A stretch of 28,279 nt of DNA, taken from positions 1-28,279 of the IMG/VR virus record IMGVR_UViG_3300023173_000081; one strand, written 5' to 3'. Of the stretch, positions 2,623 to 22,483 are shown in pieces. Under the pieces are notes generated by a model, which was not told the origin of the DNA, ran no database searches, and saw only the letters and a program-made list of their open reading frames with translations. A program made the position numbers and the translations under genes. Source of the stretch: a virus. Taxonomy: Duplodnaviria > Caudoviricetes. The stretch's first letter is position 1; the number at the start of each line of letters is the position of its first letter.

Positions 2623-3671
2623 ACTGATTCAACCTCCGCAAGAATCTCCAATGCAGCCTTTTTAGCTGCTGTTTTGTGTTTGAATTCAGAAGCATCGACC
2701 CAATCTTCAACACCCTTTTCCAGAGAGCCAAGCTCCGGTGCTTCTGCTGCATCTGGATCACGTTCGACCACGCTGGATGTTTTAATTGGCACGATCTGAA
2801 CTCCTTCAGCGCCCAGCTCGAACAAAGTTTCGCGTAGCTCTTCTATCTCAGAAATAGAAGCGTCTTTCACCTTCATTCGAACGTAGTTGTTGGCGCAGAG
2901 ATCAGGGAAGTCTTCTGGTTCACACTCAGTAAGATCAAGAAACTCTGGGGCATTGGACGGGTGATGAGTGACACCATCATCATCAACAATAAGAAATCCA
3001 GCTTTAGAGCCAATGTCACCCCATGTTTGATGAGTTAAAGCGCCTACTGAATAAACACCGTCACCTAGATCCCGGTGATTGTGATAGTGGCCGCTAAAAA
3101 CACCTTTGAAGCCAAGCTCAGATAAAAACTCAGCCGTTAACCCATGAGAGGGAATATGCGGCAACACTTCATCCACTGGCGCATGAATGAAAAGCTCCAC
3201 CTCTTGAGGGTCTTCAAGTTCAACCTTTGCGTGAACCTGTAATTCATCCTTAAGCTTTTCAACAGAGGAGATCCAAGGCACAAACAAGAAATCATCGATA
3301 AGGGTGATGTCGTTAATAACCTTGCATCCAACTTCACCTAGAGAGGAGGCTGCGTTGCCTAAATCATCAGACTCTTTACCCTGAAGATCGTGATTGCCCG
3401 CAATGATATAAACCTTTAGCCCAAGCTCTGTTGTAATACGTTTGTATGTCTCAAGCGTTGGATTTAATACGCTAGGCGAAACCTTTCCGCGAACGTGGAA
3501 TAGATCTCCGGTGTGAATTAACGCTTTACCACCTGCATCCTTGACAGCTTTGGCAGCCCGCCAAGTCTCGTCCAAGATAATTCGAAGGCGACTATTAACG
3601 CCATTTGGTAATTGTTTTGAGAACGCACTCCAATCATGGTTGTGCGTGTCAGATATGATCCCGTAAATCAT
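2619..3671 (-). CDS. sbcD: SbcD/Mre11-like metallophosphoesterase nuclease (T4 gp47-like)
   Basis: Phosphoesterase motifs SDTH, GDLFH, GNHD, H, GHYH; 4-bp overlap with sbcC. Confidence 0.92.
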   Translation of the reverse strand: MIYGIISDTHNHDWSAFSKQLPNGVNSRLRIILDETWRAAKAVKDAGGKALIHTGDLFHVRGKVSPSVLNPTLETYKRITTELGLKVYIIAGNHDLQGKESDDLGNAASSLGEVGCKVINDITLIDDFLFVPWISSVEKLKDELQVHAKVELEDPQEVELFIHAPVDEVLPHIPSHGLTAEFLSELGFKGVFSGHYHNHRDLGDGVYSVGALTHQTWGDIGSKAGFLIVDDDGVTHHPSNAPEFLDLTECEPEDFPDLCANNYVRMKVKDASISEIEELRETLFELGAEGVQIVPIKTSSVVERDPDAAEAPELGSLEKGVEDWVDASEFKHKTAAKKAALEILAEVESV

Positions 3672-3737: not shown

Positions 3738-3755
3738 TAAGTAAGCCATTACTTA
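3738..3755. promoter_or_regulatory. Operator palindrome TAAGT-N8-ACTTA upstream of sbcD
   Basis: TAAGT aagccatt ACTTA, perfect match, 66 bp upstream of the sbcD start. Confidence 0.75.
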
Positions 3756-3804: not shown

Positions 3805-3832
3805 TTGAATATTTCTTTAATTGCGTTAGGCT
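3805..3832 (+). promoter_or_regulatory. Candidate sigma70 promoter for the + strand ncRNA
   Basis: TTGAAT-16 bp-TAGGCT in an AT-rich segment immediately upstream of the structured region. Confidence 0.35.
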
Positions 3833-4240
3833 GGTTGTATCCTACAAAAAACGACTCATACAACCATTTGAGCACCCGTCTTCTGTGGGTAGAGATGCAC
3901 GCAAAGAATTCTCACTCCGATGAAGGCTGCACTTCAGCTAACAACGATGAGAACACCCTGAACGTGGTTCCACATCTCGATGTTGGCGCTGGAACCGTCA
4001 ATAACCAATCCATGTTGAGGGCAGCAATCCTCTTTATGGCGTCACCGGCCTGTGACGTTAAACTCTCAGGTGTTAATTTTCCTGGGTCGGCTCGGGGTTT
4101 GTTTCGGAGAACGTTATGTTCACCTTAAAGACTTCGAATTGTGAGGTTACGCTTGATATAGCCGCGATAATCCGAGCAGTTGCGATTATTTCGATTGTAT
4201 TATTGTAATCTTTGGCGGGGCGGCTTTGGTCGCCCCAGAC
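3830..4240 (+). ncRNA. Large structured non-coding RNA of unknown class (~410 nt)
   Basis: At least 12 stems, including nested multibranch domains (3952-3961/4066-4074 and 4090-4096/4171-4177 each enclose hairpins); non-Watson-Crick pairs read as G-U on + and as A-C on -; no credible ORF. Confidence 0.65.
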
Positions 4241-4245
4241 CTAAA

Positions 4246-4641
4246 CTAAAAAATATCACCATCTTTTAGTTCATGTAGTCTCAAAAAAGCCTTTACCACC
4301 GAAAGATTAAAATTATCTTCTTCGAAGGTATGTTCTTGCTCAAAAATGATCTTTCCATCTTCGTTCTCAAAGTGAACATTCATTTTGAAGAGATTAAATA
4401 GAATATTAATTTCTGCGTTATATCTAATAACATCTAGCAGGGCAAAGGCATCATGATTAGAATTGCAGGCGTCATAAATGTGATCCGAAGCATCTAGGCT
4501 ATTTAATGTCTTACGCCTAAACTCTTCCTCATCAATGATAACGGCAGCACTGCCATTAACATACAGGTCAGGACTTGGCTCATACCCAACCGCTCTAGCG
4601 CACTGTCTGTTTAGCTCTCTTTCTAAATCCAGATTATCCAT
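4246..4641 (-). CDS. Hypothetical protein (131 aa)
   Basis: ATG-start ORF co-oriented with the operon. Confidence 0.75.
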   Translation of the reverse strand: MDNLDLERELNRQCARAVGYEPSPDLYVNGSAAVIIDEEEFRRKTLNSLDASDHIYDACNSNHDAFALLDVIRYNAEINILFNLFKMNVHFENEDGKIIFEQEHTFEEDNFNLSVVKAFLRLHELKDGDIF

Positions 4642-8549: not shown

Positions 8550-8578
8550 AAGAAAAGAAAGGGAGCGAACGCTCCCTT
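8550..8578 (-). terminator. Intrinsic terminator after the SSB gene
   Basis: Minus strand AAGGGAGC-GTTC-GCTCCCTT followed by TCTTTTCTT. Confidence 0.75.
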
Positions 8579-8583
8579 ATTTG

Positions 8584-9462
8584 TTAACCAAGCTCTGCAA
8601 GCAGGTCATTCAGGTCGTCTTCATCAGAGGATGCTGACGTAGTAGTTGGCGATGGAGATACGTCTGATCCAGCCGCAGCCTTCACTTCGTATTCAACATC
8701 AATTGCATCATCTACCGACGCTGAAGCCAGGTCAGACGCAATAGACTCAGTTGCTTTCTCTGCTGGCGCAGGAAGCTTGCCATGAGTGGAAGAGGCCAAA
8801 GCAGTGATAGCTTTCGCTTTCTTGGCTTCACTTTCTTGTTGCGCGTAACCGTATAGATCTTCCATCTTCTCAAGCATTGCAGGAGAGGTTTCAGATTGCT
8901 TCTTGGCAAGTGACAAGGTGTAACGAGTGTCACGGCCAGAGCCAGAACGCTTAACTACAACATCGATGCCCATGTTCTCTTCGAAGTCATCACCTTCCAG
9001 TGCCATTTCTTCAAGAACATCCATCAAGTCTTTTTCAAAAAGAGACTTAGGGAATTCGTAAATTTGCGGCTCTGTTTCGCCTGCTGTGACATTGATTGCG
9101 TTAACCAATACACGACCTTTGGCGCGAGCTTCATCAAGCATTTTGAAAGTAGGATCATGCTCTGCGGCGTCCTTACCAAGACGAGAGCGAATTTCACGCT
9201 TACCGTCATTGATCATTTCGCAGATTTCACATGGCTTATCAAAAGTCTCTTCGGAGCAAACGTAAACCGCTTTTAACTGCCCTTTGTTGTCTTTGATGAA
9301 GTGATTTGCGAAAGGCTGGAAGAAAAGACCACGATCTTTTTCACCGCCAGGAAGGATTCGAAGAACTGAACGACCATCAGGAATTTTTGCTGTCTTCTTG
9401 AAGGTTGCTTTTTTACTTTCTTGGGTTTGCTTGAACTTTTTAAGTCTGTCTAATGCTGACAT
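8584..9462 (-). CDS. T4 gp32-like single-stranded DNA-binding protein (start revised to MSALD)
   Basis: RILPG...ANHF...VC...CEIC zinc-ligand pattern; acidic tail DEDDLNDLLAELG resembling the gp32 tail; SD AAGGTG before ATG at 9462. Confidence 0.8.
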   Translation of the reverse strand: MSALDRLKKFKQTQESKKATFKKTAKIPDGRSVLRILPGGEKDRGLFFQPFANHFIKDNKGQLKAVYVCSEETFDKPCEICEMINDGKREIRSRLGKDAAEHDPTFKMLDEARAKGRVLVNAINVTAGETEPQIYEFPKSLFEKDLMDVLEEMALEGDDFEENMGIDVVVKRSGSGRDTRYTLSLAKKQSETSPAMLEKMEDLYGYAQQESEAKKAKAITALASSTHGKLPAPAEKATESIASDLASASVDDAIDVEYEVKAAAGSDVSPSPTTTSASSDEDDLNDLLAELG

Positions 9463-11776: not shown

Positions 11777-12979
11777 CTATTTACCTTTTAATCCACGAAC
11801 CATATCCATCACGGTCGCAAACACATCGTCTAGACGACTTTGTTCGTCAGGTCGAAATGCGATCATGGAAGGGTTCATTCCAAAAACTATTGAACGGTCT
11901 TTCTTCTCGTCATAAATGACTTGGCCACATAGCTGATCCCAAGAGCCTTTGGCGTCAGGCCACACATGACGAATTGCAGCTCCACCCAAACAGACAATCA
12001 CTGCTGGATTTAAAAGCTCAATCTCTTTGTCTAACGTGGGCGCTTGATCATTGATTTGATCGTTGGTCAGGGTCTTCTGCTCTTTAGGGCGCTTATACTT
12101 GATTAGCCCTGTCCAGTAGCCATCGTTCTTGTCTAAGCCACTACAAGCCATTGCTTGCTCAACTGGATCAGCAGTAATGCCCTCCATAAAGCGGCCGGCC
12201 TCTTCTTCCGACCAAGTGGCAGAGTCCGTAACAACCATGAACTTCGCGTTTGCCCCAATCGCAGGTTTAACAAAGAACTCGGTATCAAACTCATCGATCT
12301 TTGAATCCCTGGCATTCAACAATTCAGTCAAAAGCTCATCTTTGGTGTCAGCGTCCAATGTCAAAGCTCGCTCTGCCTTCACAACCTCATCAATCAACGC
12401 TCCCAGAGCTTCGATCTGAGCTTTTAATCGAGATTCATCCAAAGGCTCTGGCACTCCCTTCTGAATGGAGTAGAACGCGCCTATGGAATCCAGACGTTCA
12501 ATGACTCGCTTGTTCACACAACGGCGATTCACGTTATCAATCAACTCTTCAACGCTTTTGAATCGTCCGCCACATAAGCTCTTAGCGTCTTTGATGCTCT
12601 GTAGCCCTTTCTCAGAGAGCCCCTGAATCTTTTCTAAAGGCGTAAGTAGAACCAATTCACCGTCATGTTCTTTGATCTTGAATTTGGTAAAGTCCGAGTC
12701 ATTAATGTCCGGTGGAAATACTTTGACTCCGTTTAGCTTCGCGTCTTTCACAAGCGGAAGGATCTTCTCATCGGTATCCGCAACAGAGAGCGCGGCAGCG
12801 TAGAACTGAACTGGATAATTAGCTTTCACATACGCAGCTAAATAACTAATTACCGTGTAGCTATAAGCGTGAGAAGAGTTGAATGAGTAGGCAGCAAAAC
12901 CTTCAATATCATTCCAGAAAGATTCTGCTGCTTCGCTGGCCATTCCGTCTTCAAGGCGTTTTAAATTTTTAATCTTCAT
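11777..12979 (-). CDS. dnaE: DNA polymerase III alpha, C-terminal part (fingers + HhH) fused to a degenerate UDG family-4-like domain
   Basis: FAAYSFNSSHAYSY, YVKANYPVQFYAAAL, PPDINDS, IQGL (HhH), VNKRVIERLDSIGAF; C-terminal ~165 aa follows a UDG-like pattern (ANAKFMVV...GRFMEG...KRP...EIELLNPAVIVCLG...NPS). Confidence 0.88.
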   Translation of the reverse strand: MKIKNLKRLEDGMASEAAESFWNDIEGFAAYSFNSSHAYSYTVISYLAAYVKANYPVQFYAAALSVADTDEKILPLVKDAKLNGVKVFPPDINDSDFTKFKIKEHDGELVLLTPLEKIQGLSEKGLQSIKDAKSLCGGRFKSVEELIDNVNRRCVNKRVIERLDSIGAFYSIQKGVPEPLDESRLKAQIEALGALIDEVVKAERALTLDADTKDELLTELLNARDSKIDEFDTEFFVKPAIGANAKFMVVTDSATWSEEEAGRFMEGITADPVEQAMACSGLDKNDGYWTGLIKYKRPKEQKTLTNDQINDQAPTLDKEIELLNPAVIVCLGGAAIRHVWPDAKGSWDQLCGQVIYDEKKDRSIVFGMNPSMIAFRPDEQSRLDDVFATVMDMVRGLKGK

Positions 12980-12996
12980 AAGTCATTACTTACTTA
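12979..12996. promoter_or_regulatory. Operator palindrome overlapping the dnaE-C start codon
   Basis: TAAGT cattactt ACTTA, identical to the copy at 19622-19639. Confidence 0.75.
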
Positions 12997-13035
12997 CTTT
13001 TAAATTTAAATTAATATCGCTCAATCACAGCGGTT

Positions 13036-13341
13036 TTACAACTGCTGGTGATCATCCCTTTCAAGATATTTAGTCAAAGCTTCCACCAATTCAGGGCTAG
13101 GCTGCTTGTTTTCTACAACGGTTCTAGCCATCTCTTGCAGTGTAAATTGCAAGGCTGAAGAGTAACTACAGCGACCCTCAGAATTATTTGCCTGGAAGTT
13201 AAGGAAATCTTGCATCAGATCTCTAAGAGGCTCATCCAACTTATAAGGTCTTGGCTTGATGCCCTTCTCAGCTTGCAGCTTTAAAGATTCCTGCTTCTTC
13301 TGAGAAAAGTATTCAGAACCGCGCTCTTGTGTATTGGACAT
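13036..13341 (-). CDS. Hypothetical protein between the two dnaE halves (101 aa)
   Basis: TAATG stop/start coupling with dnaE-N, SD GAGGGGG; no HNH, GIY-YIG or LAGLIDADG motif seen. Confidence 0.75.
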   Translation of the reverse strand: MSNTQERGSEYFSQKKQESLKLQAEKGIKPRPYKLDEPLRDLMQDFLNFQANNSEGRCSYSSALQFTLQEMARTVVENKQPSPELVEALTKYLERDDHQQL

Positions 13342-15650
13342 TATAAACCCCCCTCAATTGTGTATCCGTTTTCGTAAGCCTGAAGGATTGTAACCTGATC
13401 CTCCACTTCTTCAACTGACACTTTGGTTAGAGCATGAACTTCTTTAACTTGACCATCCTCAAGTTCAATTTGCACATAGCCTGTTGTTGCGCCATCCATG
13501 AATTGCTTCTTCATGGAGGCCATCAAGTCAGCATCCTTCTTGCCTACCGCTTTACGAAGAACGTCGGCTTCTGCCATCGTAAAGCCACACATGTCACGGG
13601 CAATCTGCATCAACTGTTCTTGATAGATAAGAACACCATCCGTAGATTTAAGGGCGTCATTCGTCCTTGGGTGCGGATACGTTGGCATCTCGATTCCCTG
13701 GCGAATTTCGATGTATTTATCTGCCAATCCAGCATCTAATGGGCCAGGTCTATTCAGTGCTGTCACCGCAACCGCATCATCAAATGAGATAGCAGAACCA
13801 CAACTAAGATCTCGCAATAGCTTTCGTGCTCCACCCTTCTCAAACTGGAAGATTCCAACAGTGTCACCTCTCCCCATTAGCTTCAACGTTTCTTTGTTGT
13901 CTAATGGAATGGCTTCATAGTCGATCACCTCAGAAGTAGTTTCTTCAATAAGATCTTGAGCAATGTCCAAGGTATCAAGCGTTGCTAGACCAAGAATATC
14001 GAGCTTAATTAAGCCCCACTCTTCTACCGATCGCTTGTCCCAGTTAACCGTTGTGTCTTTTCGAGTTTCAACAACCGCTCTGTTTACGATGGGTTCGCCC
14101 GCAACAACGATACCTGCTGCGTGTTGTCCTAACGCTCGATTCTGACCTTGAAGCGCTACTGCCTGTTCAAACACATCTTCGTTATCTTTAGCGAATCGAG
14201 AAAGCTCCGGCACTTCTTTTACGGCCTCCTCAAGTCGTGTGTCAGCCGGAATCAACTTCGCACAGCTCAGTTCATGAGGTAACAATCCAAATACTCGCCC
14301 TACGTCTCTCAATGCTCCTGACGCTGCAATGGTTGAATAGTTTGATATGCCCGCTACATTCTCACGGCCAAAATGCTCAACTAAGTGATCGATCACCATC
14401 TGTCGCTTGGAGGACTGAAAATCCAAATCAATATCGGGGTAATCAAGTCGATCTGGATTTAAGAATCGCTCGAAAATTAGATTGAACCGTAGAGGATCGA
14501 CATCAGTAATACCCAACACATAAGAAAGTAATGATCCAGCCGCAGATCCTCGACCGGGACCGACTTTTACATCGTTCTCTTTGCACCAATTGACAACGTA
14601 ACTAACCAATAAAAAATAAGAGCTAAAACCCATCTGTCGAATGACCTGAAGCTCATAAGCCAAGCGATCTTTATAGGGAGTAAGATCTTTTGGCTTGAAT
14701 CCATAGACCTCAGAACCCAATCGTTTTTTAAACCCTTCAACAGCCAGTTTTGCTAACGTTGCGAATTCGTTTTCACTGAATGTTGGCAAGCACATTTCCT
14801 GCTTTTCCCAGTGATAGTCACAATCTGAGAATGCGCCCAGTGAAGTGTCATACACGAATATCGAAGCCCCATCGCTAATCGTGCACTTGCTGGCGATAGC
14901 CTCAAGTTCTTCAGGCGATACCGGATGAAGATCTCGGAAATGCGACACCTGAAAGAAGCGACTCATCACGTTGCCCTTAGTGATAACACCACGCATGATG
15001 TCTTTAGGAAGATCCTGCCCTTCCAAGTAATGAATAGGACGAGTAACGATTCCGGTAATTCCTTTCTCAAACATCGCTGAGACTGCTTTAGAGTTCATTG
15101 TATGATTGAGTAATCCTTCAACGGCATGAAGCTCTACGAGGATGTCAGACGTATTGCCGGACTCAATTAACTTATCCAGAAGCTCATCATGTTTGTTCGC
15201 ATAAAACAAACCGTCAAATCCACCGGTCATCAACTTCAGGTTACCCTTTGAGAAGACTTCACAAACCTGGTCGTAAGATGCGCGTCCAGTGAAGTGAAAC
15301 TGATGTTCTTGGTGTGCTTGCGTTAAAAGCCAAAACAAGTCCTTCATGCCTTCATTATTCTTGGCTATCAGTCGAATCCAGGCATGATCATTATCAATTG
15401 CCTTCTCATCCGAATTTCTGGATGGCTCTTTGTATTCGGCATCTGATACGCAATGTATGGTTACGCCAATATGAAGCTTGAAATCCTTGTCTTTTGGAAG
15501 AGCTTTCGTGGCGTTAACTAATCCATTTACCGAGTTAGTGTCTGCCAAAATCGCTTCTTTGTATCCAAGTTCAATCAAGCTATTGATTGCTTCTTTTGGG
15601 GAAATAATGCTTTCGCCCATTGAGAAGTTTGATTTAATTACAGGGATCAT
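13341..15650 (-). CDS. dnaE: DNA polymerase III alpha, N-terminal part (degenerate PHP + palm/thumb/part of fingers)
   Basis: GPGRGSAAGSLLSYVLGIT, FERFLNPDR, catalytic PDIDLDF, QHAAGIVV, IKLDILGL, ALNRPGP, IYQEQLM, ADVLRKAVGKK. Confidence 0.95.
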   Translation of the reverse strand: MIPVIKSNFSMGESIISPKEAINSLIELGYKEAILADTNSVNGLVNATKALPKDKDFKLHIGVTIHCVSDAEYKEPSRNSDEKAIDNDHAWIRLIAKNNEGMKDLFWLLTQAHQEHQFHFTGRASYDQVCEVFSKGNLKLMTGGFDGLFYANKHDELLDKLIESGNTSDILVELHAVEGLLNHTMNSKAVSAMFEKGITGIVTRPIHYLEGQDLPKDIMRGVITKGNVMSRFFQVSHFRDLHPVSPEELEAIASKCTISDGASIFVYDTSLGAFSDCDYHWEKQEMCLPTFSENEFATLAKLAVEGFKKRLGSEVYGFKPKDLTPYKDRLAYELQVIRQMGFSSYFLLVSYVVNWCKENDVKVGPGRGSAAGSLLSYVLGITDVDPLRFNLIFERFLNPDRLDYPDIDLDFQSSKRQMVIDHLVEHFGRENVAGISNYSTIAASGALRDVGRVFGLLPHELSCAKLIPADTRLEEAVKEVPELSRFAKDNEDVFEQAVALQGQNRALGQHAAGIVVAGEPIVNRAVVETRKDTTVNWDKRSVEEWGLIKLDILGLATLDTLDIAQDLIEETTSEVIDYEAIPLDNKETLKLMGRGDTVGIFQFEKGGARKLLRDLSCGSAISFDDAVAVTALNRPGPLDAGLADKYIEIRQGIEMPTYPHPRTNDALKSTDGVLIYQEQLMQIARDMCGFTMAEADVLRKAVGKKDADLMASMKKQFMDGATTGYVQIELEDGQVKEVHALTKVSVEEVEDQVTILQAYENGYTIEGGL

Positions 15651-22088: not shown

Positions 22089-22313
22089 TTAGTGTCGTTG
22101 TTAGTGTCGTTAGTGTCGTTAGCGGCTCATTTATAATTTTGACATTTCATCAAGCCCAGTTAATATGCGGACTTTAGAAATGAGCGTTCGCCTCCTAAGC
22201 GAGTGATCGGGGTTCGAGTCCTCGTGGGGAGGCCAGCTAACATGCGGGTTGCAGACCATTCCTTGTCTTCACCCCTTCCCTTACGCCCATTTTTAGTGTC
22301 GTAATTAGTGTCG
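22089..22313. repeat. attP-like site: arm-type repeats TTAGTGTCG (22089, 22101, 22110; 22293, 22305) flanking a tRNA-derived core
   Basis: Five perfect 9-mers in direct orientation, with 12-bp spacing on both sides, next to the integrase 5' end. Confidence 0.8.
22182..22235 (+). pseudogene. 3' fragment of tRNA-Arg(CCU), the attP core/replacement sequence
   Basis: Anticodon arm TTCGC-CTCCTAA-GCGAG, T arm CGGGG-TTCGAGT-CCTCG, acceptor 3' strand TGGGGAG-G-CCA; no 5' acceptor strand upstream. Confidence 0.85.
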
Positions 22314-22483
22314 TTAGCAATCGACTAACAAAAAACGCCTAAAATCAGATTTGCGATCCTCAGTAACAATTATACCCTTTAACTCTGCACTTAAAAAAAG
22401 GTAGAGTAATATCTAATTGCATATCACATTAGATATGTAAAAAATTTTCGCGTATAGTCGCCCAAACTTTTTTTGGAACTTGA

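Follow-up and report, generated by a model that had tools for sequence, protein, structure and literature searches.

We found that the window, that is, the whole 28,279-nt stretch of a virus record with an estimated completeness of 26%, carries on its + strand a unit of about 390 nt in which a long structured leader precedes a small open reading frame (ORF) for a hydrophobic peptide. The same layout, comprising a leader of ~260–275 nt, a ribosome-binding site, a hydrophobic ORF of 29–34 codons and a GC-rich hairpin, is present at 15 distinct loci in the phage-plasmid window, Moritella and Vibrio plasmids, other phages, genomes and metagenomes, and, judged from family libraries and literature listings, it is a real and probably undescribed family. 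The reading we prefer, by analogy with known systems, is a type I toxin-like mRNA that would act in the manner of timP, tisB or dinQ. The first-pass annotation had proposed a large non-coding RNA on the + strand; this stands in that the element is conserved, covarying, transcribed and without an Rfam match, yet it also has coding sequence, the ORF being retained at each of the 15 loci. Overlooked at that stage was the fact that the last third of the unit is a conserved protein-coding frame (4116–4208).

The unit is flanked by sbcD, which is on the minus strand and starts at 3671, and by an ORF of 131 aa that ends at 4246. Its features are as follows.

3806..3833, + strand: candidate sigma-70 promoter, which would give a start near 3840
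3855..4246, + strand: transcribed unit with structured leader, small ORF and 3′ hairpin; 3′ end inferred
3892–3900 with 3964–3966 and 3973–3978, + strand: long-range helix with a bulge at 3967–3972 and a variable domain inside
3966–3972 with 3990–3996, + strand: pseudoknot 1, between the bulge and the loop of hairpin 3981–3988/3996–4003
4010–4039 and 4040–4057, + strand: two hairpins, 91–94% paired, with double-sided changes
4065–4070/4081–4086 and 4080–4086/4091–4097, + strand: mutually exclusive hairpins, the default one and the alternative one, the latter followed by a U-rich run
4092–4100/4129–4137, + strand: outer helix of the predicted lock, whose inner hairpin pairs the Shine-Dalgarno sequence with codons 1–3
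4106–4109, 4116 and 4206–4208, + strand: Shine-Dalgarno sequence, ATG and stop codon
4116..4208, + strand: conserved ORF of 30 aa, MFTLKTSNCEVTLDIAAIIRAVAIISIVLL, whose C-terminal helix is hydrophobic
4217..4236, + strand: GC-rich 3′ hairpin, 96% paired, double-sided changes in 4/8 pairs, no clear U-tract in the window, as had been noted before

The ORF is intact and free of frameshifts in 15/15 leader-bearing loci, and the variability of its first 24 codons is 0.13, 0.10 and 0.35 at codon positions 1, 2 and 3, respectively. The values of pN and pS are 0.18 and 0.63, with pN < pS in 78/78 non-independent pairs; it should be noted that the RNA structure constrains the codons as well, so this ratio is no clean test of selection on the ORF. 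The Shine-Dalgarno sequence is weak in L051 and L083. The N-terminus of the peptide is polar and conserved, its C-terminal part is hydrophobic (19-residue hydropathy of 1.85–2.46 in 13/13 peptides), and AlphaFold, with a 10-row alignment, predicts one helix with a mean pLDDT of 78. A profile search against 1.84 billion proteins returned 16 hits. Of these, 14 are 29–38 aa long and begin at the same Met, one reaches 54 aa owing to an N-terminal extension, and a 1,559-aa repeat protein was dropped. The names of 10 of the 15 database relatives were checked and were either absent or “hypothetical protein”. No peptide family was found at E ≤ 10 in Pfam/NCBIfam (6 peptides) or PHROGs (10 peptides), PADLOC had no match for the peptide, and the ESM Atlas returned only unnamed clusters, below 0.9. 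Neither the peptide nor the RNA matched TisB, DinQ, ShoB, TimP, Hok, Ldr, Ibs or other known type I families, as far as the libraries contain them.

The folding energy of the window region compared with shuffles, a check suggested earlier, gave a modest z of −2.32 on the + strand and −0.70 on the − strand. The comparison of homologues is more informative: in the structure common to 13 sequences, 95.4% of cells are paired and 28/60 pairs have double-sided changes, with 0/500 shuffles as high and slid controls at 40–46%, although this support is overstated since the scored structure was derived from the same sequences. RNAalifold gave 65 pairs, 33 of them with double-sided changes. The + strand orientation proposed earlier is supported by the ORF and by 77 G-U against 5 A-C cells, a count that is biased by the fact that the structure was folded on that strand. 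The leader as a whole combines many insertions and deletions with many invariant bases.

Pseudoknot 1 is the best-supported element of the leader in the sequence comparison. Its six pairs are 100% paired in 13 sequences, three of them with double-sided changes and one position with four different pair types; it is kept in 2/2 held-out loci, and the hairpin whose loop it uses has double-sided changes in 8/8 pairs. The segments 3966–3972 and 3990–3996 had been listed before as a nested hairpin; their pairing is upheld, but they form a predicted pseudoknot. The long-range helix 3892..3978 is present in the window’s own fold and is 96–97% paired, with double-sided changes in 4/9 pairs, in a scoring where the window’s own row was misaligned by 4 nt. 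The hairpin at 4040–4057 exposes an invariant four-base loop core (4047–4050), which can pair with 4089–4092 in 13/13 sequences (100% paired, no double-sided change), making a second pseudoknot possible. Further downstream, 4080–4086 is contested by two near-copies of a short strand, and both resulting hairpins are conserved. The default hairpin is the lowest-energy local fold in 13/13 sequences; the alternative is 100% paired, has double-sided changes in 3/7 pairs and scores as terminator-like in the window, its U-run is weak in several copies, and RNA contigs continue through it. The closing stem between the 5′ and 3′ ends that appears in single folds is absent from the consensus.

Of the 12 stems that the first-pass annotation had drawn from the letters, 10 pair fully as written in an ungapped check, and 3952–3961/4066–4074 (7/9) and 4010–4021/4028–4039 (10/12) need a bulge. 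In the 12 other sequences, by a column test that is unreliable where the window’s row is out of register, the stems 3966–3972/3990–3996, 4010–4014/4035–4039, 4039–4045/4052–4058, 4109–4112/4118–4121, 4145–4149/4159–4163 and 4217–4224/4229–4236 are 87–100% paired, 4090–4096/4171–4177 (73%) and 4103–4108/4133–4138 (56%) are intermediate, and 3909–3914/3948–3953, 3921–3925/3932–3936 and 3952–3961/4066–4074 are not kept (32–36%).

At the start of the ORF, the lowest-energy predicted fold of 13/13 sequences contains the lock, with the Shine-Dalgarno sequence and the ATG paired with early codons and a predicted cost of opening the start site of 5.3–11.7 kcal/mol. These folds leave out pseudoknots. 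Covariation of the lock helix is weak because the codons constrain it. We also considered the alternative hairpin as the ON state and rejected this model: forcing the hairpin leaves the mean opening cost at 8.66 vs 8.67 kcal/mol, with a lower cost in 7/13 sequences. Truncating the RNA in silico from its 5′ end likewise leaves the lock closed.

The stretch is present in 18 sequencing runs, 12 of them RNA, all from salt marsh in 2018 and possibly from one campaign. We examined contigs of 7/12 RNA runs and of one DNA run, the runs having been chosen by this stretch. A separate RNA contig lies inside 3855–4222 in 6/7 RNA runs, the seventh having one long contig across the region; the separate contigs start at 3855, 3855, 3861, 3861, 3861 and 3934 and end at 4156–4222, in 5/6 cases at 4156–4186, short of the stop codon. 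The DNA-run contig covers 3729–4637. In the two runs with both separate and long phage contigs the depths are 640 vs 14–30 and 874 vs 16–64; depth of contigs measures abundance poorly and the stretch itself served to select the runs, so these values only hint at an abundant discrete RNA from the unit. The lack of RNA coverage to either side of the unit is given no weight here. Contigs cannot show the strand. In two runs adapter-like letters precede 3855 and 3861; we take these for the read-2 primer, and if the library was of the dUTP type, a + strand RNA would start there. Homology ends near 4246.

The candidate promoter at 3806..3833, proposed earlier, has 7/12 consensus matches and was not reported by the promoter scan. 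Promoter-like sites in L001 and L085 lie equally far from the ATG (280–288 nt); by the same rule 7/15 loci have any promoter-like site. A LexA-like box, sought by its consensus, was found in 0/15 loci. The perfect 9-bp inverted repeat at 3832–3866, listed before as the first stem (3832–3840/3858–3866), pairs as written and spans the predicted RNA start; its 5′ arm is probably outside the RNA because contigs begin at 3855 or 3861 in 5/6 runs, and the repeat may be a DNA operator instead of an RNA stem.

Rfam had no match in the window at the gathering score, and only chance matches at E ≤ 10; at five more loci only microRNA models matched, on long hairpins outside the unit. ARAGORN and Rfam found no tRNA or tmRNA, in agreement with the earlier reading of the letters. 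Likenesses to group I/II introns, twister and omega-RNA were considered and have no Rfam support, and the 3805–4128 ORF and a tmRNA-tag-like reading near 3937 were discarded, their frame not being kept in homologues.

The window also holds sbcC, sbcD, recA, an exonuclease gene, SSB, dnaE, an integrase gene and parA; the best matches of its RecA are plasmids of ~110 kb from Klebsiella and E. coli, one typed IncFIB, and we take the phage group to be of the SSU5/pHCM2 type, which is used here as a label. A partly palindromic 18-bp motif recurs between genes with 0–4 mismatches (3741, 9527, 12978, 17455, 19621, 20069, 24704 and 27275) and likely represents phage repressor sites; the copy at 3741 sits between the sbcD start and the RNA. 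The dnaE region (11777–15650) is split into ORFs of 769 and 400 aa, with a 101-aa ORF without a family between them, vs a single dnaE in the Klebsiella relative, and the 400-aa ORF ends in a UDG-like C-terminal domain. Short tandem repeats of 9 bp upstream of the integrase gene (22089–22122 and 22293–22317) are possibly arm-type binding sites.

The homologues were collected in several ways. BLAST with the window against 72,556 plasmids gave a single match, which lies between genes on a plasmid of Moritella marina (240 nt, 77%); the Moritella sequence used as query led to a divergent copy on a Vibrio plasmid, and with four query variants the true plasmid carriers are only these two. Pattern scans, whose rows are mostly chance and were kept only after profile scoring, brought in further loci, two of them from viruses, one from a genome and seven distinct ones from metagenomes; the new real rows per scan were 0/9, 0/7, 0/18, 1/15, 1/4, 0/3, 1/47 and 0/4, in another scan 9/10 rows were real, with L148 dropped, L144 the same as the window and L146 the same as L139, and a further one gave no rows. 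The resulting set of 13 distinct sequences has a core identity of 51–96%. The peptide profile alone then identified two more genomes, and both have the leader (E ~1e-30) with pseudoknot 1 intact. In genome samples the unit was rare: 4/400 by DNA, two of them chance; 3/401 (one order), 1/401 and 1/38 (one family) by the peptide profile, the centre genome counted; and 1/2 by pattern. One homologue, searched against 5,426 E. coli genomes, gave no match, and the unit was not found in phage records, in plasmids by tblastn or in PDB.

Beside sbcD the unit is missing in 32/32 related loci (31 viral loci and the Klebsiella locus). This absence, together with the rarity in genome samples, points to a mobile passenger rather than to a core component of the phage group. 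The unit is not phage-specific: a phage-encoded RNA had been one of the earlier suggestions, and it is found on plasmids and in apparent cassettes as well. By our own motif-plus-fold rule, attC-like sites lie close on both sides in 3/13 copies (L083, L121 and L141) and are absent from the window copy, and the flanked copies leave ~10–25 nt per side outside the conserved unit. The L121 copy is surrounded by CcdAB and Phd-ParE genes, L083:1150–1690 is a putative attC-flanked cassette within the lysis region of a phage contig, and AbiE or PDC-S14 is near the unit at other loci; no constant neighbour or partner gene was found across loci. The plasmid with the Moritella copy also has its own Rep gene; at L001:7470–7700 and 8570–8600 it has palindromes that by eye resemble dif/attC, unscored by the attC rule. 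The copy on L144, a metagenome contig of 153,679 bp, is apparently identical to the window around the unit, and hence this element is also represented by a far longer piece.

Two identities of the RNA can be weighed against these data. A replication primer RNA of the ColE1 or marine RNA-based (MRB) type, proposed earlier, would agree with the length of the unit, which is close to the 465 nt of MRB RNA II (accessible part of PMC3035462), with the marine plasmid context, and with the lack of a Rep3 gene in the fragments of this phage and in three near-complete relatives (L010, L015 and L019, that is, G880–G882, have no Rep3_N match). In the same neighbourhood of the Klebsiella phage-plasmid a RepB gene lies ~1.6 kb upstream of sbcD, which bears out the earlier remark that enterobacterial relatives carry rep near sbcD. 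Nevertheless, we consider a primer RNA extremely improbable. The unit is protein-coding, patchy and not common to Vibrio plasmids, whereas MRB origins, in the text of PMC3035462 available to us, are without protein-coding sequence and common to 25 Vibrionaceae plasmids; moreover, the unit is absent from the related sbcD loci and from five near-complete relatives save one weak 10-residue match, and copies are seen in putative attC-flanked cassettes, within a phage lysis region and next to an ordinary Rep gene. Because those five relatives lack it, the replication of this phage group is a question separate from the unit. It is also very unlikely that we are dealing with a true non-coding RNA whose ORF is a structural by-product. 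Two thirds of the unit are non-coding, the RNA contigs are deep relative to the flanks and the protein collection does not list the window peptide as a called gene; on the other hand, the ORF stays free of frameshifts at 15 loci behind a leader with many insertions and deletions, its third codon positions are the variable ones, and the Met, the spacing and the hydrophobic tail are all conserved.

We favor, with moderate confidence, a stable, silent mRNA for a membrane-damaging peptide that would be activated after transcription and serve the stability of the carrier or defence against phages. Type I systems are defined by an mRNA of 150–400 nt and a peptide of 20–60 aa (PMC8594479, in the part available), a range that includes the ~390 nt and 29–34 codons found here, and both a hydrophobic, membrane-type peptide and a hidden ribosome-binding site are predicted in 13/13 sequences. 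We infer the toxicity of the peptide, its translation and the trigger by analogy. In the proposed mechanism, the lock would form once the first codons are transcribed and would block co-transcriptional translation; later refolding or trimming, with a pseudoknot recruiting the ribosome as in timP and tisB, would allow the peptide to be made. The peptide would then insert in the inner membrane and stop growth, by which the carrier element would be stabilized or a phage infection aborted.

An antitoxin was sought as a match of at least 14 nt within 2.5 kb at 13 loci, and none was found; the window itself gave nothing significant, no convincing conserved antisense promoter was seen, and no leader ORF was found. 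An antitoxin, if there is one, must be either an antisense RNA inside the unit or encoded at another place. In the cassette copies it is either internal or absent, because the ~10–25 nt left on each side do not fit a separate antitoxin gene.

This layout bears on a reading in which the leader would act as a riboswitch-like or phage-triggered sensor and as the sole control of the peptide, with no antitoxin; it keeps the idea of an mRNA and departs from the favored reading in what opens it. The lack of space for a separate sRNA gene in attC-flanked copies, the large number of invariant bases in the leader, its pseudoknots, of which one is supported and the other possible, and the competition of a terminator-like hairpin with an upstream one would all suit it; we judge it rather unlikely, since the same peptide always follows the leader and no varied metabolic genes do, no Rfam riboswitch matches even at E 10, the U-run is weak in several copies with RNA contigs passing the hairpin, and an internal antisense RNA is possible. 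Its broader form is equally tentative: an antitoxin-free cassette spread by integrons, plasmids and phages, in which a stockpiled silent mRNA with a double-pseudoknot leader would sense a cue, for instance a metabolite or an infecting phage, and release a membrane-killing peptide. The peptide may also be a non-toxic small membrane protein, for example one that excludes superinfection or modulates a transporter; alternatively, the RNA may have a dual function. The single hydrophobic helix and conserved polar N-terminus predicted for it, its occurrence in phages and the lack of a detected antitoxin are consistent with this; we find it unlikely, given that a predicted default translation lock and a covarying 260-nt leader would be costly for a harmless protein and that no partner gene is constant across loci.

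Among known systems, the closest design to the type I toxin-like mRNA proposed here is, by analogy, timP/TimR, an mRNA for a small membrane peptide first annotated as the non-coding RNA RyfA, which shares with the unit a pseudoknot within a structured 5′ UTR, a stem hiding the Shine-Dalgarno sequence and mutually exclusive folds (PMC11228461 and PMC13000454, available parts). The unit differs in its longer leader with a bulge-to-loop pseudoknot, in that no antitoxin gene and no Rfam or toxin-profile match was found, and in its occurrence on marine mobile elements and cassettes instead of in enterobacteria. The peptides of tisB, dinQ, shoB and zorO have about 30 aa. The corresponding systems tisB/IstR-1, dinQ/AgrB, shoB/OhsC and zorO/OrzO have, as the unit does, a hydrophobic peptide behind a long inert 5′ UTR, and tisB also uses a pseudoknot (available part of PMC13000454). 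Their antitoxin gene, as far as the available text of PMC8594479 goes, lies 5′ of the mRNA without overlap, for which the cassettes of the unit have no room; in addition, the unit has neither a detected LexA-like box nor a profile match to them. In hok/Sok, ldr/Rdl and aapA/IsoA, which are mobile or repeated toxin mRNAs, the antisense RNA lies wholly inside (same part of PMC8594479), and antisense RNA inside the mRNA region, as in hok/Sok, is the only layout possible for the cassette copies; our searches found no conserved antisense promoter, leader ORF or profile match linking the unit to this group. Gene-less cassettes of Vibrionaceae superintegrons are, like the unit, a few hundred bp long and empty to gene callers; compared by description, and in the part of PMC11014356 at hand, they are without conserved small peptides, whereas the unit has a peptide and a covarying fold. 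No description of the family was found in literature listings and open papers: its peptide motifs led only to unrelated antimicrobial-peptide papers and were in none of 8 supplement files of PMC2887945, and the accessible part of PMC12654330 has nothing bearing on it.

Type I toxin mRNAs serve as the principal models of how a lethal message is silenced through RNA folding alone, and the pseudoknotted examples cited here, timP and tisB, are enterobacterial. The family presented here would add a larger, strongly covarying leader with natural compensatory variants, and the mechanism is therefore directly testable. It would also mean that some apparently empty integron cassettes contain a real gene missed by annotation, and, if it is true that no antitoxin exists, the unit would represent a new mode of controlling such a toxin.
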